DNA of 64,000 bases from a phage: sequence record PX853108.1; one strand, 5' to 3'. Positions within the stretch are counted from its first letter, which is position 1, and each line of letters opens with the position of its first letter. Below the pieces are notes generated by a model. The model had not been told where the DNA came from and did not search any database. It saw nothing but the letters and a program-made list of their open reading frames with translations. Below are positions 3,571 through 62,587 of this stretch, piece after piece. The translations under genes were made by a program, and so were the position numbers.

Positions 3571-5152
3571 GTTAATTAAACAGGAACTAGATGAATGGCT
3601 AGACCAGGTGGATTACTCCCACCTTAATTCGTCTAACTATGTTCCTAGTCAGTTTGCTCTTACCTTTGCCAACTTTATTAAGTTGGTTAATGGTAAAGAG
3701 GGTGAATCCAACAAAACACCTCCAGTTCACCTGAAGATGCTGGATAAGATGATTAGTCCTAACCAGTATGTAGTTAACCTGTGCTTCCGTGGTGCAGGTA
3801 AGACTGCTGTGTTTATGGAATACTTTACTTTGTTCCTGGCAGTGTTTGGACACTTACCAAGTCTGGGTAAAGTAGAAGGGATGATTTACGTATCTGACTC
3901 AATGGATAACGGTGCTAAGTCTGCACGTAAGAACATTGAGTTTCGTTATAAGAATAGTGAGTTCCTACAGCAATGGATACCTGAAGCTACCTTTACGGAT
4001 AACCTATTAGAGTTTCGTAATGTAGAAGGACATCGACTTGGTGTTAAGCTGTTCGGTGCTAAGACAGGTCTTCGTGGTACGAAGATATATGGTAAACGCC
4101 CAACACTCTGTGTACTGGATGACTTGATTAGTGATGGTGATGCTAACTCCAAGACTAGCATGGAAGCTATTAAGGATACTGTTTATAAAGGTGTGAACCA
4201 TGCTCTTGACCCAACCCGTCGTAAAGTAATCTTCAACGGTACTCCCTTTAATAAGGAAGACATTATCATTGAAGCGGTAGAGTCTGGTGCATGGGATGTC
4301 AACGTATGGCCTGTGTGTGAGAAGTTCCCTTGTAGTAGGGAAGAATTTCAGGGTGCATGGGATGACCGTTTCTCTTACGACTATATTAAAGCCCAATATG
4401 ACATGGCAGTTAAGACGGGTAAGCTGGCAGGCTTCTATCAGGAACTTATGCTCCGTATTAGCTCTGAAGATGAGAGACTGGTTCAGGATAGTGAAATTAG
4501 ATGGTATAGCAGACAGCAACTATTAAGGATGAAGTCCTGCTACAACTATTACATTACAACTGACTTTGCTACTTCGGAGAAACAGACCAGTGACTACAGT
4601 GTCATATCAGTTTGGGCTTATAGTTCTAATGGAGATTGGTTCTGGGTTGATGGTGTGGCTAATCGTCAGCTTATGGATAAAAACTTTGATGATCTGTTCC
4701 GTCTGGTTCAAGAATACCAACCACAAAACGTTGGAGTCGAAATCACAGGACAACAGGGTGGATTCATCTCTCTCCTTCAGAAAGAAATGATTAACCGTAA
4801 TGTCTTCTTTAACTTTGCATCCTCCGAGGGTGGTAAGCCTGGCATACGTCCTGTAACCTCTAAGCTGTCACGTTTTAACCTGGTAGTTCCTTGGTTCAAA
4901 GCTGGTAAGATGTACTTCCCAGAAGAGTTGAGAGATTCAACTATCATGGGTCTGTTCATGGGGCAGATTAAACTAGCTACCATTAATGGAATCAAAGGTA
5001 AGGATGACTGTATTGATACTATCTCTATGCTGGGTTATCTCAATCCTTGGAAACCACAAGCAGGTATGACTATGGTGGATAACAAGGGTGACCCAATGTG
5101 GGATGACGAAGAAGAAGATAGTGTTAACCCACTACGTTCATACATTGTGTGA
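3563..5152 (+). CDS. Terminase large subunit
   Basis: ORF 3542-5152 begins at GTG; first ATG with an RBS (GAGGA) is 3563. Deviant Walker A (CFRGAGKT), Walker B-like LCVLDDLISD, size ~530 aa, position at head of structural block. Confidence 0.8.
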   Translation: MSELIKQELDEWLDQVDYSHLNSSNYVPSQFALTFANFIKLVNGKEGESNKTPPVHLKMLDKMISPNQYVVNLCFRGAGKTAVFMEYFTLFLAVFGHLPSLGKVEGMIYVSDSMDNGAKSARKNIEFRYKNSEFLQQWIPEATFTDNLLEFRNVEGHRLGVKLFGAKTGLRGTKIYGKRPTLCVLDDLISDGDANSKTSMEAIKDTVYKGVNHALDPTRRKVIFNGTPFNKEDIIIEAVESGAWDVNVWPVCEKFPCSREEFQGAWDDRFSYDYIKAQYDMAVKTGKLAGFYQELMLRISSEDERLVQDSEIRWYSRQQLLRMKSCYNYYITTDFATSEKQTSDYSVISVWAYSSNGDWFWVDGVANRQLMDKNFDDLFRLVQEYQPQNVGVEITGQQGGFISLLQKEMINRNVFFNFASSEGGKPGIRPVTSKLSRFNLVVPWFKAGKMYFPEELRDSTIMGLFMGQIKLATINGIKGKDDCIDTISMLGYLNPWKPQAGMTMVDNKGDPMWDDEEEDSVNPLRSYIV

Positions 5153-5158
5153 GGAACC

Positions 5159-5869
5159 ATGCAGAAATTATCGGAAGTATATCGTGGCTTGGCACTAAGT
5201 ACCTTGAAGGGTACTGGTGCAGTCACTGATGACAGATTAGGCATTGAACCAGATAGCAAGCCTGAAATATTGGCAGCTATTAATGAAGGGCTGGTACGAC
5301 TACATAGTCGTTTCCCTTTAAGGACTAATAGCTGCATTGTGGAGATGAAGGAAGGTCGTACTGATTATCCCCTTCAATCCAGATATGCTTACTCCAAATT
5401 TATTAAGCCTACTCTTGAGATTCAATACCCATATATCATGGATGGGTTCATGAAACCTTTCCAGGATGATGTCATTAAAATCTTAAATGTGTTTGATAAC
5501 TCAGGGAATCGACGTAGACTGAACGACGATTCAGACCCTCATGCAATCTTTACTCCTCGGCCTGATACTATTCAGTGTATGCGACCTCGACACTTCGAGG
5601 CACTTAACGTAACTTATCAAGCTAAGCACCCTGTACTTACGGGTGATGAAGAACAGGAAGTTGATTTAGCTGATACGCTAATGACGGCACTTCATAACTG
5701 GGTGGGTTATCGTTACCACACTGGTTTGAATACTCCGGAAGCTAATGCTAAGGCAGCAGAGTATCTGCAAACATATGAAAGCATCTGTGGTGAGGTTGTT
5801 GATTACGACCTGGCTAATGGAAGTATTTCAATTACCGAAACTAAATTTGAACAACGAGGATGGCGATGA
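5159..5869 (+). CDS. Virion structural protein (tail-associated by position)
   Basis: 236 aa ORF with RBS GAGGAA; lies between terminase and the tailspike-like genes. Confidence 0.3.
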   Translation: MQKLSEVYRGLALSTLKGTGAVTDDRLGIEPDSKPEILAAINEGLVRLHSRFPLRTNSCIVEMKEGRTDYPLQSRYAYSKFIKPTLEIQYPYIMDGFMKPFQDDVIKILNVFDNSGNRRRLNDDSDPHAIFTPRPDTIQCMRPRHFEALNVTYQAKHPVLTGDEEQEVDLADTLMTALHNWVGYRYHTGLNTPEANAKAAEYLQTYESICGEVVDYDLANGSISITETKFEQRGWR

Positions 5870-8547
5870 ACGCACATACCCCCTTTGATGCAAAACAGGA
5901 TTGGACCAATCCTTACTGCCAAAACAGTTCCAATGACCCAATGGTAGATGCATTACTTGGTAATGCTTACCATGTGGTTCGTACTGTTTACTGTAACTTG
6001 GGTAACCTTAAACTTTTGTATGATTTCCTGAACCAGTATGGAATGGTTCTTGGTGTACAGTCAGAGGCAGAACTTAAAGCATTAACTACTAAAGCTAAGT
6101 ATGCACGTATCTATGGCTTTTCTCGTACAGGTGACCGGCAGGTAACTGACTACCTGTATGTGGAAGGTGATCGTACAGGCATTATCCCTGATGACCCAAA
6201 GGCAACAGGTTCATGGATTACTGTTGCTACTTCTGGTTCCACCGGTGGTGGTACTTCTTCCAGCGAAGGTGCTTACATTCCTTGGGTATACAGCAATGGT
6301 TCCGCTACTGGTGGGGAAACCACAATCAACGTACCAGATGGTACGGTAGGTGTGCCTTTCATTATTGTTAATGGCGACATGCAGTATGTAGGCCGTGGCT
6401 TTGAGTTTAATATTGACAGTCTGTCTGTAACTCTGGCTCAACCTTTAGAAGAAGGGGATGAAGTAGTATTCCTTCTGACAGGAGTGCCTGCTGTACCAGA
6501 TAATCCTAACGTTAATGACTGGGTTCAGATTAACTGGTTATACAACAATGGTGCTGCTGTAGGTGGTGAACAGGTTATTACTATTCCTTACACCTTCCAG
6601 TCTATTCCGGCTGTGTATAAGAATGGACTACGTTTGTATAAAGGATTAACTACTGAGTCCTATACTGCTGACCCAGATAACCAACGTATTTTTCTTACCG
6701 AACCACTGACAACCAATGACCGTCTGATTGTACAGATTGGAGGGGAAACACAGGTACTGGAAACATCAGACCATACTATTCAGGAAGTTGCTCGTGCAGC
6801 TAACGTTAAGGATAGTGAGGTAATTCTTAGTACTGACGTTACTCAATTCTTAAATGGTAAGAAGATTGTTTATTCTGTTAGTGAGCAGAAGGCTTATGGG
6901 TTACCTTCTTTGCCTACCAATGTGTACATTCAATCCGTAGAGAACGGTAAGCTTACATACTCCCCTGGAGCCGTGGAAGTAGATTTAGTTCCTATCCCTG
7001 GTTCCTCTGAAGAATTAAAAAATAGTTTAATATCTGATACTGGGGCTGCCATAGTGAGCACTAGTTCTGGTGCAACTGTACAAGCAGAACTTGATAATAT
7101 TACAGAGAAATTGGGGGACTCTTACCCAAATATAAGAGGTAATATTAATACACCTGCAACTGGGTATGTATTCCAACCATATACCCGCTATTACGGCGAC
7201 CATGACATTCGATACATTGGGGGCGGTAATCCTAAGTCAACTAAGCGATTTAAAAAAGATGGGCATGAAACAATAACTCTTACTGGGATTTCTACGACGG
7301 CATCTAATCCTCCAACCATATCGGTGGATACAGTTGCATATGTAAACCCTGCTAGTGCTGACCCTGATGATAGAACCTTCCCTGCAAGTATTACCTTTAA
7401 CGGCCTAGCCTTTGTAGGTGATGATGATGAGACGGGGGAAGTTGGATTAACCATCCTTCAGGGTCAGAATTTCCAGATTCAAGATTGTGGTTTTAGTAAG
7501 ACTAAACTGGCAACTTGGTTTGTAGATGTATGGATGACCAGTGTGAGTAATTCCACCTTCTTTGGGCAGGTTCGCCATGATGGAGGTACTAGCTGTTTCT
7601 ACACTAACTGTTATGCCACTGTACATGATGCCTCAGTACCACTAGGTGCATACAGAATTTCTAATATTCAGTATGGTAATATGACCTCTTGTGCCTCGGA
7701 TGGGACGATAAATGGTGCTTACTGGTTTAACGGTAATAATGGATTAACAGTTAATAACTGTGGGTCAGAAGTTCCTACCACAATGGACAGGAACTATGGT
7801 ACTGCTGCGCACTTTGAAAAAAGTAATGAGATGGTACTTACCAATTTTTATACTTTACCCGCAGAAGGTACTAACATGCTCATATCAGTAAAAGATGATA
7901 ATGAGTTAGTATTCAATAACATGATGGTATACGGTAGCCCTGATAGATACAGCCGGGATTTCTGGTTTACAGGCACGAACAATAACTTGATTATTAATGG
8001 GGGCATCTTTGGTAATCGAGGAGACTTCCCACGTATTGCCACAGACCATGCAGGAAACACTGTAATTTACAATGCTGTTAATGGTAACTCATACATATGG
8101 AAAACTAAAACAGCGGCCATCACTGCTGTATGGGAACCAAAGTACCTTTCACAGACATTGGATACTACATCTGATGTCGTATTTACGAACAGCGGTCCTG
8201 TAACAGGAGGAACACGAGATATTAAATTCACTAAGAATGGTAATACTGCTACTGTTGAATTTGATATTACTATTCCAAGTGTTTCTGGTGCAGTGGGACA
8301 ACTTCGTATAAATGGTTTGCCTTATGCTGCTGCTCAACAAGCTAGTGGTAGTGTAGCTATAGCCATTGGTTTAGGTACGGGTGTTGGTAATATTTCTTGT
8401 GCCGTTATCAGAAATGGGACTGAGATACTGTTCTATAAATCTACAACAGCAGGCGGTGTATCATCCGCACTTGTGCCATCAGACCTAACCGATGGATGCA
8501 GCCTTCGCGGTAGTATTACCTACTCCTGTGTATCCGATTGGGATTAA
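5860..8547 (+). CDS. Tail fibre / tailspike-like protein with beta-helix-type C-terminal region
   Basis: 895 aa; Gly/Thr/Asn-rich repetitive C-terminal half typical of parallel beta-helix receptor-binding proteins; internal ~70 aa module (nt ~6781-7015) homologous to the N-terminus of the next gene. Alternative start ATG 5866. Confidence 0.45.
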   Translation: MAMNAHTPFDAKQDWTNPYCQNSSNDPMVDALLGNAYHVVRTVYCNLGNLKLLYDFLNQYGMVLGVQSEAELKALTTKAKYARIYGFSRTGDRQVTDYLYVEGDRTGIIPDDPKATGSWITVATSGSTGGGTSSSEGAYIPWVYSNGSATGGETTINVPDGTVGVPFIIVNGDMQYVGRGFEFNIDSLSVTLAQPLEEGDEVVFLLTGVPAVPDNPNVNDWVQINWLYNNGAAVGGEQVITIPYTFQSIPAVYKNGLRLYKGLTTESYTADPDNQRIFLTEPLTTNDRLIVQIGGETQVLETSDHTIQEVARAANVKDSEVILSTDVTQFLNGKKIVYSVSEQKAYGLPSLPTNVYIQSVENGKLTYSPGAVEVDLVPIPGSSEELKNSLISDTGAAIVSTSSGATVQAELDNITEKLGDSYPNIRGNINTPATGYVFQPYTRYYGDHDIRYIGGGNPKSTKRFKKDGHETITLTGISTTASNPPTISVDTVAYVNPASADPDDRTFPASITFNGLAFVGDDDETGEVGLTILQGQNFQIQDCGFSKTKLATWFVDVWMTSVSNSTFFGQVRHDGGTSCFYTNCYATVHDASVPLGAYRISNIQYGNMTSCASDGTINGAYWFNGNNGLTVNNCGSEVPTTMDRNYGTAAHFEKSNEMVLTNFYTLPAEGTNMLISVKDDNELVFNNMMVYGSPDRYSRDFWFTGTNNNLIINGGIFGNRGDFPRIATDHAGNTVIYNAVNGNSYIWKTKTAAITAVWEPKYLSQTLDTTSDVVFTNSGPVTGGTRDIKFTKNGNTATVEFDITIPSVSGAVGQLRINGLPYAAAQQASGSVAIAIGLGTGVGNISCAVIRNGTEILFYKSTTAGGVSSALVPSDLTDGCSLRGSITYSCVSDWD

Positions 8548-52794: not shown

Positions 52795-55362
52795 TTAGTT
52801 ACCTTTCAGTTTATTTAGACGATTACGGTAGAGGGACTTAAACCCAGGAATATCCTCTGGATTCTTCTTGAGGTGTTTTACCAAACTACCTAAGTCCAGC
52901 GTCTGTAGGATGTCATTTTTATTCCAGCTGTAGCTGAATAAACCTTTGTAACCATTAAGTATTTCAAAGTACTTATGGTTACGTGGATTAGTCATCACTA
53001 TATATGGCTCTAGGTCATCTACTGATTTAATACAATCCATTTCAACAAGTTTTTCTTTGTTGTTATGTGGTCGATTTCGTAAAAAGTCATATGCCCATTC
53101 ATATTCTGGTTTAAAAATCAGATTCTGTAATGGTTTGAAGGTTAAACCTAGTATGTCGAGGATTTCCCAGTATTCTCTGTCGTCCAATCCTACATATTCC
53201 AGAATACCAATACGGTGTTCAGTAACATATTTCTTGAAGCCTTTACTGGTAATAACTGACATCAATTTACTGTAGCGAACATCATCAATGTGGATAGCAC
53301 CACGCCGTTTGGCCTTGTTAGCCTCGATTTGATTGCGACAGACAACTGTCTCTGCTTTCATCTCATCGGATAACTCATACCATTTCCACATGGTTCCAAT
53401 TCGAGCAGTTACAGGACTACCAGAACTAATCTGATTAGCCAGTACATAGTACTTAGGCTGTTCTATCTCAACGAAACCATACTTCTCATGGAAGCTAGGA
53501 TCAGTAAAATCCTTGTCAATGTACGGTTTAGAATCCCAATCCCCACTTTTATTCCGTACAGGGGTAGTGCCGAGAACTGCATTCAATGAAATCAGAGCAT
53601 TAGTTTTACCTCCTGCTTTGGTTTTATTAGCAGCTATTGTCTTAGCTCGCTTCTCAGCAGCTAACTTAGCCTGTTCCCTGCGGTAGTTAGTCGGTTTGTC
53701 CCACTCATTATATTGAGTAAGGTCAATTACCCGATAACCCATAGCAGTGAACTTAGCTACAGCTTCCTCTGCTGCACCCTTCTTAGGACCAACAACGTGA
53801 ACAAAAGCTGTACGCTCCAGATCACCTCGGTTGTACTCAGGGAAGTATGAGAAAGAGTCTGCACAATCAGATAAACGTCGGGTAACTACAACGTTTTTGG
53901 TAGTGAATATGCCAATACTTTGGTGGGAGTTATTGTATATCCTAAAGTAGTCAGTAAGTTTACCTTTTACCAAGTCAACACGGTTACCTTGATTCATTAT
54001 GTAACCATACCACTTAATACCAGAGGTTTTCAAAGCAGCCAGCTGAGGTAAGTGCAGATGGCGATATACTAATTCCGAGAATGGGGAGTATGTACTTTCT
54101 TCACGAGTATCCTTAAGAGCACGCATAGCCTTACCATATAGTTTCTTAAGACCTGCATACTCAGGACGAGCTAATAATGCCTTATTGGATAAATTACGCC
54201 AGTGCTTGATGCGATGCTTACGTTGCTTAGCCCATAAACTAGAGGACATATAACGTTGAACAATAGGGTCTGTAACAGCAAGTAGGAAAGAAGGATATTC
54301 CCAGAAGCGAGTAGAGGATTTAGAGGCGTATTCTTCAACTTGCTTAATAGCTTCAGGAATCTTAGCCTTAATCTCTTTCTCCATACGGTCTACTAAATCT
54401 ATACACAGAGTAGTAATACCATCGTCGGTTAACTTCTGATTGGACAGCGTTTCTCGACTAGGAGCAATAGCTAGAGTATCCGGTGCAGCCTGAACTACTA
54501 AATTAGATGCTCCAATAATATTCATGAAGTTGAGAATAAGACCTACTGCCTCTTCACTAGCAGGGCTGGATACAATTGGGTACATTACGTTACCGTAACG
54601 AACGAAAATGTTACTGTTACCCATATAACCCTTATACCATCTATCAGACATATCATATGAACCAGGTTCAAATGACATACCCAGCGTATCCAGCAGAGTG
54701 TAGTCGCCTTGCTGAATGTTAATGCCTTCTTCTGTTTTAACGAGTTTAGTGGTACTTAGCTCAGCTTTAATCTCACCGTTAAACACGATTGATCTGATGT
54801 AATGCACGAAGGTATTTACGTCATGCTTACCTAACTGGAACTTAACTTCCAGACCAGATTCCTCAGTGGGAATATTGGTAACAATGGGGACAATACCAGG
54901 CTTACCATCATTCTCAATCGCAGCCTTAGCTACGTTGTATACAGACATCTTCCCTTGGTTCCATGAAGTAACCTGGAAGCTATCTGTATAAGCGAATGGG
55001 GATTTACATCCCAGACCAAAGCCACCAGTAACACTACTGTTGGCTTTCTTAGTAGATGCACCATAGACACCATAAATGGAGCCAATGAGTTCATCCGGGA
55101 TTCCGTTACCGTAGTCACGGAAGGTAATAAAGTTGTCTTTATCAATGGTAATACGAATAGGGGTATCAGTCTTACCTGCTTCAATATGAGCATCCCAACT
55201 GTTACAGATAGTCTCACGAACTACTGCCAAAGTAGGATTGTTATACAAGGAAGTACTTAATACATGGAAGAATGCCGGGTCATCAGAGATGCCAAAGGCA
55301 ATTGTTTCTTTGCCACCCAGTGTCGCTGAGGTAGCTACTTCATTGGTATCTGCAACTAACAT
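52795..55362 (-). CDS. rIIA: rIIA-like protein with N-terminal GHKL (histidine-kinase-type) ATPase domain
   Basis: 855 aa; N-box-like ETICNSWDA, G1-box RDYGNGIP, G2-box GGFGLGCKS within the first ~120 aa, as in T4 rIIA. Confidence 0.65.
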   Translation of the reverse strand: MLVADTNEVATSATLGGKETIAFGISDDPAFFHVLSTSLYNNPTLAVVRETICNSWDAHIEAGKTDTPIRITIDKDNFITFRDYGNGIPDELIGSIYGVYGASTKKANSSVTGGFGLGCKSPFAYTDSFQVTSWNQGKMSVYNVAKAAIENDGKPGIVPIVTNIPTEESGLEVKFQLGKHDVNTFVHYIRSIVFNGEIKAELSTTKLVKTEEGINIQQGDYTLLDTLGMSFEPGSYDMSDRWYKGYMGNSNIFVRYGNVMYPIVSSPASEEAVGLILNFMNIIGASNLVVQAAPDTLAIAPSRETLSNQKLTDDGITTLCIDLVDRMEKEIKAKIPEAIKQVEEYASKSSTRFWEYPSFLLAVTDPIVQRYMSSSLWAKQRKHRIKHWRNLSNKALLARPEYAGLKKLYGKAMRALKDTREESTYSPFSELVYRHLHLPQLAALKTSGIKWYGYIMNQGNRVDLVKGKLTDYFRIYNNSHQSIGIFTTKNVVVTRRLSDCADSFSYFPEYNRGDLERTAFVHVVGPKKGAAEEAVAKFTAMGYRVIDLTQYNEWDKPTNYRREQAKLAAEKRAKTIAANKTKAGGKTNALISLNAVLGTTPVRNKSGDWDSKPYIDKDFTDPSFHEKYGFVEIEQPKYYVLANQISSGSPVTARIGTMWKWYELSDEMKAETVVCRNQIEANKAKRRGAIHIDDVRYSKLMSVITSKGFKKYVTEHRIGILEYVGLDDREYWEILDILGLTFKPLQNLIFKPEYEWAYDFLRNRPHNNKEKLVEMDCIKSVDDLEPYIVMTNPRNHKYFEILNGYKGLFSYSWNKNDILQTLDLGSLVKHLKKNPEDIPGFKSLYRNRLNKLKGN

Positions 55363-56405: not shown

Positions 56406-56642
56406 TTACTTACTATTCTCTTCAATGAAGCGTCTCATACGTTTCTTTGCTTCATCATGTTCCTTAATGGCTACATAGTCTCGTGCATAATAATATACAC
56501 ACCATAGGCCAAGAACACATGCAGAGAAGCGAGCCACCACGAAGAACATCTCTTCTAGGCTCTGAGCATTATGTAATGAAAATACAAATTCCAGAACCAG
56601 GATGATACTTACAATCATTGCTTGAATAGCTAAGCGTTTCAT
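56406..56642 (-). CDS. Small membrane protein (2 predicted TM segments)
   Basis: 78 aa; two hydrophobic segments and a basic C-terminus. Confidence 0.4.
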   Translation of the reverse strand: MKRLAIQAMIVSIILVLEFVFSLHNAQSLEEMFFVVARFSACVLGLWCVYYYARDYVAIKEHDEAKKRMRRFIEENSK

Positions 56643-57583
56643 TCAGTAATAGTCTCACCAGGGATTAATTTACGGAACTGGATAAAGTGGAGTAGGTTGC
56701 CTGAGTACAGATTCCCCTCTTTATCCATGGAAGTAACACCTTGTTCCCATGTAACTGGGTTCATGTTATTCACGTACTTCTCACTAAGGTTCATGGGCGT
56801 AGCTTGATGTTCCGTTGGGGAAGCATGAATAGGTTGGTTTTCAACTAATTTAGCAAATAAACTAAGGTCTTCTTCAATAGTAGATGGACGTCCTTCAAAG
56901 TTGTTATAGGAAGCACGAGCACAGCGTGCAGCACTTACTTTGAGAAGTAGTCCATGCACTTCTGCATCACTTGGTTCATCACGTGTAATTCGATTACGTT
57001 TGCAGAAATTGTAAGCCCCAACACGATCAATATGAGCAATATATGGCAGATGCCATTGCCCATATGGTAATGCCCTTGGCGTACTTTCTTCATGTGCCTT
57101 ACGCATTGCTTGAGCCAGTTCACGAATCTCTGGTTGTGCATCTTTGTGGTCACGCAATCCATAGAAATTAGCCCAGCTAGTTGAAGTTACCACTACACGG
57201 ATATGAGTGAAGGGTTCCAGAATACGGTTAACAATCTGCTTATGCACTTGCCCACGACGCAGCATTTCTGCATAGGTAGCAACACTAGATGCAGCCTGTT
57301 CCCAGATAAAAATTGCATCACTGCGTTGGTCTTCAGATAGCTCTTCAAATGCCTGCATACCTTTCTGGTTCTTACCCCAGTGACTAGGCATCACTGGTTC
57401 ATTACGAACCTGTTCGATGAACTTAGAAGTAGGGATAGCACGACTGCTTGAAGCGTTACGGTTAAATACACGGTGGGTCATAAATTCACTGTGAATGAAT
57501 CGGGGATAAACCAATTCAAAGGTTGTGATACGAGTTCCTGTTTCTGGATGAACGGAATCTGCAATAACTGATGCCTTAATCAT
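56639..57583 (-). CDS. thyX: Flavin-dependent thymidylate synthase (ThyX-like)
   Basis: 314 aa; FMTHRVFNRNASSSR fits the ThyX signature (R/T)HR-x7-S-x-R. Confidence 0.5.
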   Translation of the reverse strand: MIKASVIADSVHPETGTRITTFELVYPRFIHSEFMTHRVFNRNASSSRAIPTSKFIEQVRNEPVMPSHWGKNQKGMQAFEELSEDQRSDAIFIWEQAASSVATYAEMLRRGQVHKQIVNRILEPFTHIRVVVTSTSWANFYGLRDHKDAQPEIRELAQAMRKAHEESTPRALPYGQWHLPYIAHIDRVGAYNFCKRNRITRDEPSDAEVHGLLLKVSAARCARASYNNFEGRPSTIEEDLSLFAKLVENQPIHASPTEHQATPMNLSEKYVNNMNPVTWEQGVTSMDKEGNLYSGNLLHFIQFRKLIPGETITE

Positions 57584-58422: not shown

Positions 58423-58448
58423 AAAAAAGCCCACGGGTTAGGTGGGCT
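58423..58448 (-). terminator. Intrinsic terminator (minus strand)
   Basis: Stem AGCCCAC/GTGGGCT with 7-nt loop; minus strand then reads TTTTTT. Confidence 0.55.
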
Positions 58449-58523
58449 TGGGTTAGGAGATGGATAAGCAATGAGCTGGAAGTAACTTCCACAAGCACCA
58501 CTATGTAATGATGCTTAGATTAG

Positions 58524-59058: not shown

Positions 59059-59565
59059 TTATTTACTGCTTCTTGCAGCTACTGGTTTGTTTTCCTGGTT
59101 CTGATACTTGCCATTGTAATTAGCAGGTTCCTGAACCAGATGAAATAATACTTGAGCTATCCCAGAACCAGCCGGGATATGCAATTTCTTGCGACCATGA
59201 TAGACCAGTTCAAGAGTCAGATACCCTTTCCATCCTGGTTCTATTACGGTATTGAACACAGATAATGCACGTCTTGCCCATGTAGACTTATCGTGAACGA
59301 TAGCTACACAGGACGGGGACATGTTGAACTTCTCAATTGCTGAAGCTAATGTGAATTTACCGAAATGTCGTGATACTTGATTTCCATCAACAACCTTCAC
59401 CATTGGAATCAACCCAAATAAGCGATAAAAGGTAATATCTTGTTTGATACGAATATCATAACCAGCTTCACCTAATCCATAGCTTACACCATGCTCTGAT
59501 ATCTTATGGTCTGGGACATCCAGCAACTGAGATGAACGATAAAGAGAATTACCATTAACAACCAT
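59059..59565 (-). CDS. dcd: dCTP deaminase / dUTPase-fold protein
   Basis: 168 aa; VIEPGWKGYLTLELVYHG resembles the Dcd/dUTPase beta-barrel motif (D/E-P-G-F/W-x-G ... LE). Confidence 0.45.
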   Translation of the reverse strand: MVVNGNSLYRSSQLLDVPDHKISEHGVSYGLGEAGYDIRIKQDITFYRLFGLIPMVKVVDGNQVSRHFGKFTLASAIEKFNMSPSCVAIVHDKSTWARRALSVFNTVIEPGWKGYLTLELVYHGRKKLHIPAGSGIAQVLFHLVQEPANYNGKYQNQENKPVAARSSK

Positions 59566-60770
59566 TATTTCATTCCTTTAGGGATATGAACTACCTCCCC
59601 AAAAGGTACGGTAGCATTAGGATTATTCAGAACACACCAGATGATAGGAATATCAAATGGCAGTTCTTCCATTGGATGAACATACATATCGGAGAATATG
59701 ATTGCAGCGGTTGGCTTATTCTTAATAATCCACTCGCGTACTGGTTCCAGGTTTGTACCACCACGACCGGTAATCTTAATCTCTTCAAAAGTATCTTCTT
59801 CAGTGATGTCCATCTCTTCTTGAATAATATCGTCGAAGGTAATTAGGGACATCTTCTTAGGATTGAACTGGCTCTTAACGTAGGCAACCTCTGAGTTAAA
59901 ACGCAGAGAATCAGCACTACTAATAGAACCAGATACATCCTCAAAGTAGGCTAGGTGTCGCAGACGTCCTTCGTCATCTTCCAGCGAAGGTAGATAGATG
60001 TCAGTGTAACGACGGTTAGGTCTGGCCCACGTATAGTGTGTATCATCAATGTCGGTAAAGAAGTTCATCAGAACTTCTTGCCATGGAACCACTGGTTTAA
60101 GGAATTGGGTAATGACCTCTTCCATACGACCAGCACCTTTACCGGGCATCTGTCCACCAGCCATCTTCTGGCTCTGCATTGCACGTACTACGTTGTTGAC
60201 GACAGCACCCTGGGACTGCCCCGAAGAGGGGGATTTCATGTCGCCAGCAAGACCTGCTCCAGCACCCCCTGACGGCTTCTGCCTTTTCTGAGGGTTCTTC
60301 ATCAGGTCATCGTAGATGTCTTCTTCGACCCATCCTTTATATTGAGGATCTTTGCAAATGCCTTCATTAATACCAGTGAACTTGTAACCATCCTCTTCTA
60401 ACTGAAGGTTAATGAAGTGGTCACATGCCTGGTTCCAGACTTCTGGGTCACGGCTTCCACGACGAATGTCATGTAGATATGCTACATGCCATAGTTCATG
60501 CATAAGCACCGTTTCTCTTGCATCTGGACACATCCAGATAAAGAAGTCTGGGTTGAAATGGAGTTCTATCCCATCAGTACATGCAGTGGGACAATTCTCA
60601 CGTTTCCATGAGAACTTAAGACTACACAGTAATGAACCAAAGAACGCAGCAGACTTGCCTAGGAAAGCCTGAGCCTGAATACGGTCATACTCACGCATGA
60701 GTTGTTCATCACTAAGTGTGTGCTGAGGAAATTGGTTCATTATTTTATCCGTGAATGTAACGAGAGACAT
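59565..60770 (-). CDS. VWA-domain protein with N-terminal HExxH metallopeptidase-like motif (MoxR partner)
   Basis: 401 aa; HELWH near the N-terminus; MIDAS-like DVSGSIS in the C-terminal half; overlaps the upstream AAA ATPase gene. Confidence 0.6.
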   Translation of the reverse strand: MSLVTFTDKIMNQFPQHTLSDEQLMREYDRIQAQAFLGKSAAFFGSLLCSLKFSWKRENCPTACTDGIELHFNPDFFIWMCPDARETVLMHELWHVAYLHDIRRGSRDPEVWNQACDHFINLQLEEDGYKFTGINEGICKDPQYKGWVEEDIYDDLMKNPQKRQKPSGGAGAGLAGDMKSPSSGQSQGAVVNNVVRAMQSQKMAGGQMPGKGAGRMEEVITQFLKPVVPWQEVLMNFFTDIDDTHYTWARPNRRYTDIYLPSLEDDEGRLRHLAYFEDVSGSISSADSLRFNSEVAYVKSQFNPKKMSLITFDDIIQEEMDITEEDTFEEIKITGRGGTNLEPVREWIIKNKPTAAIIFSDMYVHPMEELPFDIPIIWCVLNNPNATVPFGEVVHIPKGMK

Positions 60771-61797
60771 TAGCAGCAGCCTTACGCCATTCAGGTGTAG
60801 CCTGAATTTCTGGTAATGCTTTGCCTACTGTACGGAAGTACAGAATTTTATGAGTGAACGTTTTAAAGCGTTCAATGTACTGAAGAACATCAACAAAGTT
60901 CTCTTCAGTAGTTTTGTTAGCCAGATGGTTAACGGTAGCCCAGCACAGATTGTTATCTTCCGGTAGTGCACAGCCCAGTGGGTCTTTGACTACCTTCTCA
61001 ATCGTAATGATACGATTATATACCTGAGTAAACTGAATAAATTCTGTAGCCTTACCAGCAGTAACGTGACCTGCATAGTAGATAGAATCTTCGTCAGGCA
61101 GAGCACCTTCTGGCTGATTCTTGAGGTCTTTGTTAACAAAGTCCCAGGTACGTGGGCAACAGAATGTTTTGTTCTTATGAGCTGGGTCGAAGTCATGCAG
61201 GTAACCTGGGTTAGCATGTAAGAATGCAACCAGACGTTCATCCCATTGCTGAGGAATCATTACGTCTTCAACAAAGATGTCGAAGTTAAGTTCCATTTCA
61301 AAGTGAACCACACGAGACTGCATTGCAGTACCTAGTGGGTTAACAATGGCACGGTCAGTAGCTTTGTTACCTGCACAGACAATCATCACATTAGGATGAA
61401 GTTTTTTCTGACCAGTCATACGGTCTAGAATCAGTTTATATGCAGCAGCTACTACTTCTTTCTTAGCGGAGTTGAACTCATCTAGGAATAATAGCCAGCC
61501 ATTATAACCTTCGGGTACTTCATCCCCCTCAATCGGGAATAGGTCAGCGAATGGAATAAACTCTGCACGGTCACCATTACGGAATGGTAGACCAGAAAGA
61601 TCTTCTGGGGCAGAAGTAGACAGACGGTGGTCAATTAACTTCATACCAAATTCTTCTGCAATAGAACGAATGATTGCAGATTTACCCATACCTGGGGATG
61701 AAGTCAGGAACGGTACGTTACCTGCTTTTAAGGCACGAATAATAAAGTTACGAGCTTGACGTGAATTACATACAGTCAAGGAGTCAATGCTTGTCAT
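60745..61797 (-). CDS. MoxR-like AAA+ ATPase
   Basis: 350 aa; Walker A SSPGMGKSA and Walker B LLFLDEFNSA. Confidence 0.7.
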   Translation of the reverse strand: MTSIDSLTVCNSRQARNFIIRALKAGNVPFLTSSPGMGKSAIIRSIAEEFGMKLIDHRLSTSAPEDLSGLPFRNGDRAEFIPFADLFPIEGDEVPEGYNGWLLFLDEFNSAKKEVVAAAYKLILDRMTGQKKLHPNVMIVCAGNKATDRAIVNPLGTAMQSRVVHFEMELNFDIFVEDVMIPQQWDERLVAFLHANPGYLHDFDPAHKNKTFCCPRTWDFVNKDLKNQPEGALPDEDSIYYAGHVTAGKATEFIQFTQVYNRIITIEKVVKDPLGCALPEDNNLCWATVNHLANKTTEENFVDVLQYIERFKTFTHKILYFRTVGKALPEIQATPEWRKAAANVSRYIHG

Positions 61798-61831: not shown

Positions 61832-62161
61832 TTAAGATTTGGTGCAGGGATATGCCTTATGTACTGAGTACACAATAATTTGGGATGTATTCTTCAATTT
61901 AAGGATTGCAGAGTCATAAATAACTACTTTGGCAATCTTAGGCAAAATGACTGAGTATTTGATACCTTCTGGAACACAGTTATCTGTGCTCTCTATGTAA
62001 GAGATCATACTGCCCATGAAGAACCCTTGCCCGAACGCATCACGGGTGTCGTCCAGGTAAGCCTGAGCACCTTCCAGAATTGGTTCTGGTTCAATTGCTT
62101 GTGCATTTGGGGCCAAAGCTATCAGTGCAGCTACTGCAACACCTTTAAGTAAAGTTTTCAT
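61832..62161 (-). CDS. Secreted/periplasmic protein (signal peptide)
   Basis: 109 aa; N-terminal MKTLLKGVAVAALIALAPNAQA looks like a Sec signal peptide with an AQA cleavage site. Confidence 0.45.
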   Translation of the reverse strand: MKTLLKGVAVAALIALAPNAQAIEPEPILEGAQAYLDDTRDAFGQGFFMGSMISYIESTDNCVPEGIKYSVILPKIAKVVIYDSAILKLKNTSQIIVYSVHKAYPCTKS

Positions 62162-62557: not shown

Positions 62558-62587
62558 AAAAAAAGACCTCCCTTCAATAGGGAGGTC
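62558..62587 (-). terminator. Intrinsic terminator (minus strand)
   Basis: Stem GACCTCCC/GGGAGGTC with 7-nt loop; minus strand then reads TTTTTTT. Confidence 0.6.

Follow-up and report, generated by a model that had tools for sequence, protein, structure and literature searches.

What a phage would do with a MoxR-type AAA+ ATPase and a partner that joins a metallopeptidase-like motif to a VWA domain is the question raised by two adjacent genes on the minus strand of the phage sequence record PX853108.1. A stretch of 64,000 nucleotides, referred to below as the window, was analyzed, and all window features given here lie on its minus strand. A first-pass annotation had described a MoxR-like AAA ATPase and an HExxH/VWA partner encoded by two overlapping open reading frames (ORFs), and these were found at 60745..61797 (350 amino acids) and 59565..60770 (401 amino acids). 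What it did not recognize is that the pair is the gp24/gp25 module of phage N4, which is real, highly conserved and already catalogued; the window holds nothing new in this respect. N4 gp24 (AAA ATPase) and gp25 (vWFA superfamily) were recognized in 2009 (PMC2784036) and were listed again in the Schitoviridae proposal (PMC7650795). Both are entered as core genes of unknown function (PMC4193335, PMC7650795), in agreement with the earlier remark that the function of such pairs is unresolved. The CRISPRi-ART paper contains nothing on N4 gp24 or gp25, and the pair is not mentioned in the PA5oct transcriptome preprint. The reading that we prefer, with a probability of roughly 45%, is that the two proteins form a two-component machine, an ATP-powered protease targeted by the metal-ion-dependent adhesion site (MIDAS) of the VWA domain, with a substrate that is more likely a non-virion protein, either of the host or bound to DNA.

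The upstream gene (60745..61797, stop included) was assigned to the gp24-like ATPases from its ORF, from Pfam and PHROG, from a structural model and from synteny with N4 gp24. It matched the Pfam AAA family (PF00004) above the cut-off (E 6.5e-6) and PHROG 1297, "ATPase", at 2e-133. Its top sequence relative in the PDB was the AAA ring of midasin (E 3.5e-4), and a profile search agreed with this. An AlphaFold2 model computed with 64 homologues had a pLDDT (predicted local distance difference test) score of 91.2 and a predicted template modeling (pTM) score of 0.86. When this model was compared to the PDB with Foldseek, NorQ (9qh4, 9qhg, 9qhd) and CbbQ2 (6l1q) made up four of the top five matches, with target-normalized TM-scores of 0.62-0.66; dynein, MCM and midasin, which belong to the same helix-2-insert superclade, were interleaved with these and then followed below them. 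The bacterial homologues of gp24 passed the Pfam model AAA_5 (30 bits) and nearly reached AAA_3 (22-26 bits against a cut-off of 27). The gp24 protein is therefore best called a divergent MoxR-like AAA+ ATPase, which has the motifs, the closest structures and the partner gene of this class, whereas the Pfam MoxR models do not recognize it at their thresholds. The label "MoxR-type" rests on the similarity of the modeled structure and on the partner gene.

The catalytic motifs were all present. The Walker A motif or P-loop, SSPGMGKS, comprises residues 33-40 (61678..61701, checked in the sequence); its G38, K39 and S40 are invariant in the 64 N4-like homologues, and almost all of the bacterial homologues aligned retain G36, G38, K39 and S40. 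Walker B (LLFLDE, residues 102-107, 61477..61494) contains the invariant D106 and E107. The invariant N144 (61366..61368), located at the end of model strand 137-144, was taken as the sensor-1 asparagine, the invariant R162 (61312..61314) is a candidate arginine finger by analogy to MoxR proteins, and R216 (61150..61152) in a CPRTW motif, where R216 and W218 are both (nearly) invariant, is a candidate sensor-2 arginine; the names arginine finger, sensor 1 and sensor 2 were assigned by position. Walker A, Walker B, N144, R162 and R216 were found invariant among the 64 N4-like homologues and likewise among over 50 from bacteria.

The region between strands beta2 and beta3, residues 56-99 (61501..61632), is a candidate helix-2 insert according to the secondary structure of the model. 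It contains a predicted beta-hairpin at residues 70-81 (strands 70-74 and 77-81), and a short strand at residues 131-133 is predicted ahead of beta4; the presence of helix-2 and pre-sensor-1 inserts in gp24 is thus suggested by the model. The conservation of residues 56-99 is exceptional; within them D56, R58, S60, P64, D66, G69, P71, A78, F80, F83, P88 and P95 are invariant. By analogy to the NorQ-NorD pair, this region may be the contact surface for the VWA partner (PMC13036017).

The product of the second gene shares 61% identity with N4 gp25 over 96% of its length, and has an HExxH domain at its N-terminus, which a Gly-rich linker joins to a VWA domain at the C-terminus. Pfam identified DUF2201_N (PF13203, "putative metallopeptidase") at 4.4e-57 with 194 bits against a cut-off of 23.2, followed in the same protein by DUF2201 (PF09967, "VWA-like") at 2e-34 with 119 bits against a cut-off of 26.4. 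Together the two domains wholly cover residues 27-396 of the 401-amino acid ORF, and both models were matched by all 67 aligned homologues. The scores obtained for the two genes are far from what chance would give. The first-pass annotation had staked its reading on domain searches, and these confirmed the AAA as well as the VWA fold; its assignment of the pair is upheld by Pfam, by PHROG 1297 and by the Foldseek matches to NorQ and CbbQ2. The HExxH and MIDAS DxSGS motifs that it had reported in the downstream gene are likewise present, as HELWH at residues 91-95 and DVSGS at residues 278-282 of the 401-amino acid ORF. No NCBIfam family matched gp24 or gp25 of the window, and in PADLOC the window proteins gave only a match at 0.0063 to DolB.

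Proteins of the gp25 type are labeled "HNH endonuclease" in PHROG 1314 and in many RefSeq records, including NC_008720 (N4 gp25) and NC_019401 (GAP32_211). This label was rejected, because no HNH or His-Me finger domain was detected in gp25 by Pfam; it looks like a propagated annotation error.

Conservation in gp25 was assessed in two sets of sequences. The first consisted of 150 representatives of clusters, taken from a profile search that covered 1.84 billion proteins and gave 21,960 relatives at E<=1e-3, and the second of homologues from 68 bacterial loci with 27-30% identity. Residue numbers in the following refer to the 391-amino acid form of gp25. The VWA domain comprises residues 263-386 (59583..59954) and has the Rossmann-like VWA fold. 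Its MIDAS is complete: DVSGS (D268-x-S270-x-S272, 59925..59939) was found in 150/150 representatives and 68/68 bacterial homologues, the MIDAS threonine T329 (59754..59756) in 148/150 and 67/68, and the MIDAS aspartate D351 (59688..59690) in 149/150 and 65/68. The assignment of the VWA domain and its full DxSxS...T...D MIDAS is solid.

The metallopeptidase-like motif of gp25 is an HExxHxxxxH followed by an invariant ACD. The first part, HELWHVAYLH (residues 81-90, 60471..60500), is located on a predicted helix of residues 72-87. Among the 150 representatives, H81 was found in 143, E82 in 138, H85 in 142 and H90 in 139. In the bacterial set the three histidines, R93 and D107 were retained in 66-67 of 67 homologues, with the three histidines themselves present in all 67. 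The ACD motif (A105-C106-D107, 60420..60428) stands out by its conservation and as an intein site, and its D107, present in 145 of the 147 representatives that have a residue at this position and in 66/67 bacterial homologues, is a candidate extra metal ligand or catalytic residue. H90 and D107, the two candidates for a third ligand, are thus both near-invariant. The assignment of the domain to the zincins rests on Pfam and on the motif; a permissive Pfam cross-search (E up to 10) gave only insignificant matches to other HExxH families.

Two homologues of gp25 were found to carry an intein of about 300 amino acids exactly between A105 and C106 (residues 112-415 of P0253 and 106-410 of P0079), with the boundaries ...WNFA / C...VVVHN / CDIRINN. 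For P0079 a precomputed Pfam intein-domain match was also present. Since inteins usually occupy critical conserved motifs, their presence within ACD suggests that this is a critical site.

The two domains of gp25 are joined by a Gly/Ser/Gln-rich linker (residues 150-215, 60096..60293), for which model confidence was low (pLDDT 54-85 per 10-residue block), with minima at residues 157-161 (<50) and past residue 200. The linker varies in length among homologues, some of which have inserts of 25-53 amino acids at position 170. Just before the VWA domain lies the conserved WARPNRRYTDIYLP loop (59988..60029), in which the N4-like set invariably has W238, P241, R244, Y249 and P251. At residues 235-242 of this WxRPNRRYxDxYLP loop the pLDDT drops below 50, which would be expected of a segment becoming ordered only on its partner. 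In NorQD, the closest mechanistic template for the pair, a finger of NorD enters the pore of the MoxR (NorQ) hexamer and touches the helix-2 inserts. Movements of the subunits, driven by ATP, turn the VWA domain and stretch a linker of NorD, so that the target is remodeled; the authors presume this finger-in-pore mode to be general for AAA+/VWA pairs (PMC13036017). By this analogy the loop of gp25 is a candidate finger that may engage the ATPase ring.

In the machine that we infer from these features, gp24 would act as a MoxR-class AAA+ ATPase and most likely form a hexameric ring. The gp25 protein would be its dedicated partner and would dock on the ring, probably via the loop beside the VWA domain being pushed into a pore that is lined by the helix-2 inserts of the ATPase, as for NorD in NorQ. 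The MIDAS of the VWA domain would capture an acidic residue of the substrate through its bound metal ion, and ATP hydrolysis would twist or pull gp25 together with the bound substrate. The N-terminal HExxHxxxxH...D domain, a putative peptidase held on the flexible Gly-rich linker (about residues 150-215) that would supply the needed reach, would then cut the substrate. Transcription would take place in the middle (DNA-replication) phase of infection, in one operon with dCTP deaminase. The pair may act, as the first-pass annotation reasonably put forward, by chaperone-like remodeling or by cleavage of a host target. Domain identities, motif conservation, gene linkage, operon structure and distribution come from the data themselves, while the ring, the docking mode, the peptidase activity and above all the target are inferred.

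The known machines of this type differ from the gp24/gp25 pair in several respects. NorD has no HExxH domain, and NorQ-NorD, which as a chaperone inserts iron into nitric oxide reductase, has a respiratory enzyme of the membrane as its target. NorQ has about 255 amino acids, whereas gp24 has some 90-170 extra C-terminal helical residues, and the identity between them is 14-18%. The Rubisco activase CbbQ-CbbO consists of a MoxR hexamer with one VWA adaptor, the MIDAS of which binds an acidic residue of the target; it is without a peptidase domain, and Rubisco is irrelevant to these phages. Midasin (Rea1/MDN1), which combines an AAA ring and a MIDAS, is one giant polypeptide of eukaryotes in which six AAA modules are fused; it has no peptidase and functions in ribosome assembly. 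A viral precedent for a MoxR-VWA pair is provided by p618 (MoxR) and p892 (VWA) of the Acidianus two-tailed virus (PMC7824862, PMC7159879). That pair, which we liken to the one in the window by its description, is archaeal, lacks a peptidase domain and is associated with extracellular tail growth.

A number of observations weigh against the preferred reading. The gp24-like ORF fails the Pfam model AAA_5 (17.5 bits against a cut-off of 22), and Pfam gave no match of the window ATPase to AAA_3 (MoxR). E82 of gp25 (codon 60495-60497) is replaced by T, L or A in 6/67 bacterial homologues, in which the three histidines and D107 are kept. Loss of E82 with retention of the histidines fits a metal-binding role as well as it fits a peptidase, and the Glu-less homologues may bind metal without cutting. 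Neither of the two fold searches recovered a zincin fold for the N-terminal domain of gp25, as both gave VWA matches only, and PDB sequence and profile searches with gp25 found no relative of solved structure. Virion structural genes flank the pair in the jumbo phage GAP32, and genes for virion proteins are found close to gp24 and gp25 in roseophages (PMC4193335). The census of genomic neighbors given below was built on crude ORF calls. Finally, the literature searched yielded no experimental or functional study of DUF2201/PF13203/COG3864.

The behavior of E82 bears on whether the pair instead serves as a metal-insertion chaperone, comparable to NorQ-NorD, CoxD-CoxE and the chelatases, in which case the target enzyme would be opened and the metal delivered, with HExxHxxxxH...D as the metal-holding site. 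The metal ligands are under stricter conservation than the catalytic glutamate, the top structural matches of the ATPase are NorQ and CbbQ, the VWA domain of gp25 is nearest to the CoxE type, and a mechanism for such an action has been described for NorQD (PMC13036017). Yet the glutamate is still found in about 91-95% of homologues, the Pfam model is that of a putative metallopeptidase with other HExxH peptidase families as its sole weak cross-matches, and no metalloenzyme was a constant neighbor across the phages, plasmids and islands examined. We therefore regard a role in metal insertion as very doubtful.

The distribution of the pair was determined by tblastn, with which a gp25-like gene was detected in 754 phage records and a gp24-like one in 829. 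The phages comprise N4-like phages of all kinds, the rV5-like Vequintavirinae, RaK2-, GAP32- and PBECO4-like jumbo phages, PA5oct-like phages, the Thermus phage phiFa and roseophage CRP-7. In all six non-N4 phage lineages examined, the homologues of gp24 and gp25 were located no more than about 4 kb apart, and a gp24 homologue was found upstream of the gp25 homologue in 77/85 loci, most of the other eight ending at a contig edge. The family is also present on 114 plasmids, of which 30 are conjugative and 37 mobilizable. On the conjugative plasmid pBcp895-1 of Burkholderia cenocepacia (L092:2571-8158) the ATPase and DUF2201 genes are parted by an IS21 element, and the pair lies directly upstream of VirB-type type IV secretion genes. 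Around the bacterial loci no phage structural genes were found within about 6 kb, and the possibility that the bacterial homologues are parts of complete prophages was for this reason considered unsupported. A link of the pair to the virion RNA polymerase, which is the hallmark of N4-like phages, was rejected as well, because the pair also occurs in rV5-, RaK2- and PA5oct-like phages and on plasmids, which are not known to have such a polymerase.

In the rV5-like phages the genes for the gp24-like ATPase and the gp25-like protein are divergently oriented and about 3.6 kb apart. The "anti-sigma factor" gene located directly upstream of gp25 in these phages was considered as the ATPase partner and rejected, since the homologue of gp24 is the "MoxR ATPase" gene some 3.6 kb away. 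In Escherichia phage nom (L086:1104-2581, 4861-5901) the ATPase is annotated as two adjacent "MoxR ATPase" coding sequences. Such doubled coding sequences in rV5-like phages are possibly the result of a frameshift or a split.

Given its presence in unrelated phages, on conjugative plasmids and in islands free of virion genes, the module more likely acts on a non-virion protein than on one of the capsid or tail. With low confidence, we take the substrate to be a host protein or a protein on replicating or recombining DNA. A different role was proposed for the group 2.2 jumbo phages, which encode a MoxR-vWA pair whose vWA protein has a metallopeptidase at its N-terminus; here virion assembly with proteolytic processing was suggested by Iyer et al. 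(2021), by analogy with p618 and p892 of the Acidianus two-tailed virus (PMC7824862). The jumbo phage pair has the same three-domain architecture as that of the window and was linked to it by tblastn and hidden Markov models (GAP32, RaK2, PBECO4 and the PA5oct-like Callisto), but identity to the window proteins is only 23-31%. On this account the pair would be a chaperone and protease that folds or assembles parts of the tail or head and trims structural proteins. The flanks of the GAP32 pair, which include an Hsp70-like gene in addition to the virion structural genes, fit such a role, as does a Hoc-like decoration gene just upstream of the window operon. The virion proteins encoded near the homologues in roseophages RPP1 and RLP1 belong to a "second structural module" expressed in mid-infection (PMC4193335). 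Against it stand the small bacterial islands and plasmids in which the module is common without nearby virion genes, and the N4-like phages themselves, where the pair belongs to the middle genes and is surrounded by genes of nucleotide metabolism, opposite to the late structural genes in the genome program. RNase H and Gp157 are neighbors in phiFa and in bacterial islands, which also speaks against it. The virion-assembly idea leaves both the plasmid and island copies and the association with replication and nucleotide metabolism unexplained, and we consider it rather unlikely.

The association with replication and nucleotide metabolism was seen repeatedly, with dCTP deaminase, ThyX, RNase H, Gp157, MazG and DprA as neighbors. 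Among the two ORFs 3' of the gp25 homologue (124 ORFs from the 68 bacterial loci), the commonest families were Gp157 (25 matches) and RNase H (17 matches); siphovirus Gp157 is described as "Mu Gam-like end protection" in PHROGs. In phage phiFa an RNase H gene is located between the homologues of gp24 and gp25. In 48 bacterial loci, mainly from Acidobacteria, a conserved protein of 312 amino acids (protein X) accompanies the pair and is usually encoded between the ATPase and the DUF2201 gene; it had no match in Pfam, PHROG or PADLOC. The resulting five-gene module has the order ATPase-X-DUF2201-RNase H-Gp157, as in Edaphobacter modestus (L026:3990-8350) and about 48 other loci among L017-L082. 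The flanks further out were heterogeneous and comprised housekeeping genes, RES toxins, regulators, extra copies of DnaN, DnaB and DnaE, SMODS proteins and transposases; the surroundings of the five-gene module were in part rich in conflict genes (RES toxins, AAA_21, SMODS).

These surroundings raise a narrower form of the preferred reading, in which the pair is a counter-defense or host-takeover protease, a weapon of mobile elements that destroys an immunity or housekeeping protein of the host soon after DNA entry. The occurrence of the module in phages, conjugative plasmids and islands is compatible with this, and some of the island neighbors are conflict genes (RES toxins in 8 cases, SMODS/CBASS-type genes in 3, and AAA_21, DruA and an N6 DNA methylase). 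Such neighbors are, however, a minority of a heterogeneous set. Counter-defense genes tend to be variable, but the pair is among only 14 core genes of N4-like phages that infect very different hosts. PADLOC gave no convincing match for the phage proteins or for the bacterial five-gene module: there were just two weak matches, with E values of about 0.006, and nothing was significant for the bacterial module. We find this narrower form distinctly unlikely.

A bolder version of the two-component machine was also considered. In it, the pair would represent in phages a module that is widespread among mobile elements, a protease powered by its AAA+ motor and guided by its MIDAS, which would strip off or destroy a protein on replicating or incoming DNA. 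Cdc48/p97 with Wss1 or SPRTN combines an AAA+ motor with an HExxH protease having a third histidine nearby, and strips proteins from DNA. The similarity to the gp24/gp25 pair is a functional analogy only, and Cdc48 belongs to a different AAA+ clade; beside this likeness we note that the bacterial modules adjoin RNase H and the Gam-like Gp157. This version is speculative and, in our judgment, quite improbable. If true, it would make the pair either a bacterial-virus analogue of Cdc48-Wss1/SPRTN or a universal host-takeover protease, and would explain why every N4-like phage has retained it.

The first-pass annotation had also stated that the two genes overlap. An overlap of 26 nucleotides exists only when gp25 is read as the longest ORF (59565..60770), and is probably an artefact of this choice. 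Nearly all relatives of gp25 have about 380-395 amino acids, most of them 390-391, and the nearest 90%-identity cluster (98% identical, 799 member sequences) has 391. These lengths place the start at the second ATG, at window position 60740. In phage G7C a free-standing HNH homing-endonuclease gene, gp24.1 (L004:2028-2504), which is absent from the window, is inserted exactly between the gp24 stop and the gp25 start, so that in this phage the long ORF's first ten codons cannot form part of gp25. On the basis of homologue lengths and the G7C insertion, the gp25-like gene most probably comprises 59565..60740 (391 amino acids and stop), and the in-frame extension of ten codons that overlaps the 3' end of gp24 (60741..60770) is probably not translated as part of gp25. 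The likely layout is TAA-aata-ATG, with a spacer of 4 nucleotides after the gp24 stop. In N4, on the other hand, gp24 and gp25 are separated by 167 nucleotides. Otherwise N4 resembles the window in the order gp24-gp25-dCTP deaminase, in the matching middle-gene region and in the position of the pair between the RNA polymerase II (RNAPII) genes and dCTP deaminase/ThyX/rIIA.

The window itself is from a Gamaleyavirus, a G7C/N4-like coliphage with about 94-95% nucleotide identity to known isolates. A stretch of 3.2 kb around the pair had 92-95% DNA identity to more than 50 Gamaleyavirus phages of Escherichia and Shigella, and the close relatives include vB_EcoP-ZQ2, ECBP1, IME11 and Bp4 (G7C-like, N4-like; Schitoviridae). 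The gene order is the same as in the Gamaleyavirus relatives and in N4. It starts with the RNAPII subunit genes and the Hoc-like decoration gene, continues with small genes, the ATPase (N4 gp24) and the VWA protein (N4 gp25), and ends with dCTP deaminase (gp26), an Imm-like gene, ThyX, rIIA and rIIB. The dCTP deaminase gene (59059..59565; Pfam DCD 9e-16, PHROG 1663) belongs to the same operon as the pair, and we make no claim that it is part of the machine. Its ATG shares one base with the stop codon of gp25 in a TAATG overlap (59563-59567), which suggests translational coupling of the two genes. Two strong terminator-like hairpins enclose a middle operon of eight genes that includes the pair. 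The upstream one, just 3' of the Hoc-like gene (62565..62587), has a stem of 9 bp with 6 GC pairs followed by a T-run, and the other, identified by a hairpin search, is located at the end of the operon (58427..58449). The annotation of G7C has a stem-loop at the place equivalent to the upstream hairpin; its second stem-loop follows gp27 and is thus one gene short of (upstream of) the hairpin at 58427-58449. Both genes of the pair are transcribed as middle genes in N4, and they count among the 14 genes that make up the core of N4-like phages (PMC4193335).

Just upstream of the ATPase gene, an ORF of 109 amino acids (61832-62161) has a signal-peptide-like start (MKTLLKGVAVAALIALAPNAQA). It is co-transcribed with the pair and is named "tai4 protein" in one related record. 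Further along, 52795-55362 encodes an rIIA-like protein whose N-terminal ATPase domain is of the GHKL type (HATPase_c_3), and 56639-57583 a thymidylate synthase of the ThyX type; both neighbors are typical of N4-like middle regions.

In addition to the gp25 inteins, insertions were found in the ATPase gene of relatives. In Escherichia phage vB_EcoP_PW8 (L005:3099-3966, minus strand) the gene is split by an insert of 868 nucleotides that contains an ORF for an HNH endonuclease, at a position corresponding to the conserved codon 67 of the window ATPase (about 61597-61599). Splicing after the exon-1 U and the intron-final G (...GAAGACCT / TAACTAA...CATAACG / TAGTGG...) would exactly restore EDLSGLPFR. 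The insert was not picked up by an Rfam search at the gathering threshold; a permissive search gave a sub-threshold match to Intron_gpI (25.6 bits, E 3.6e-4) with an GAUAUAGUC core. The insert is probably an intron of group I that carries a homing endonuclease. ATPase fragments split in the relatives P0141, P0145 and P0180 suggest that there are further insertion sites in the gene. For such selfish elements, conserved sites of important genes are a common location.

The analysis gave a corrected start for the gp25 gene, flagged the "HNH endonuclease" label as a mislabel and provided context evidence against a purely virion-assembly role. The genes gp24 and gp25 are two of about 14 genes common to all N4-like phages and recur in rV5-like and jumbo phages, on plasmids and in islands. 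Identifying the target of the pair would close a gap in the understanding of a whole family of phages employed in phage therapy, and would extend the MoxR-VWA machines, the mechanism of which is just beginning to be resolved, by a variant that bears a protease.

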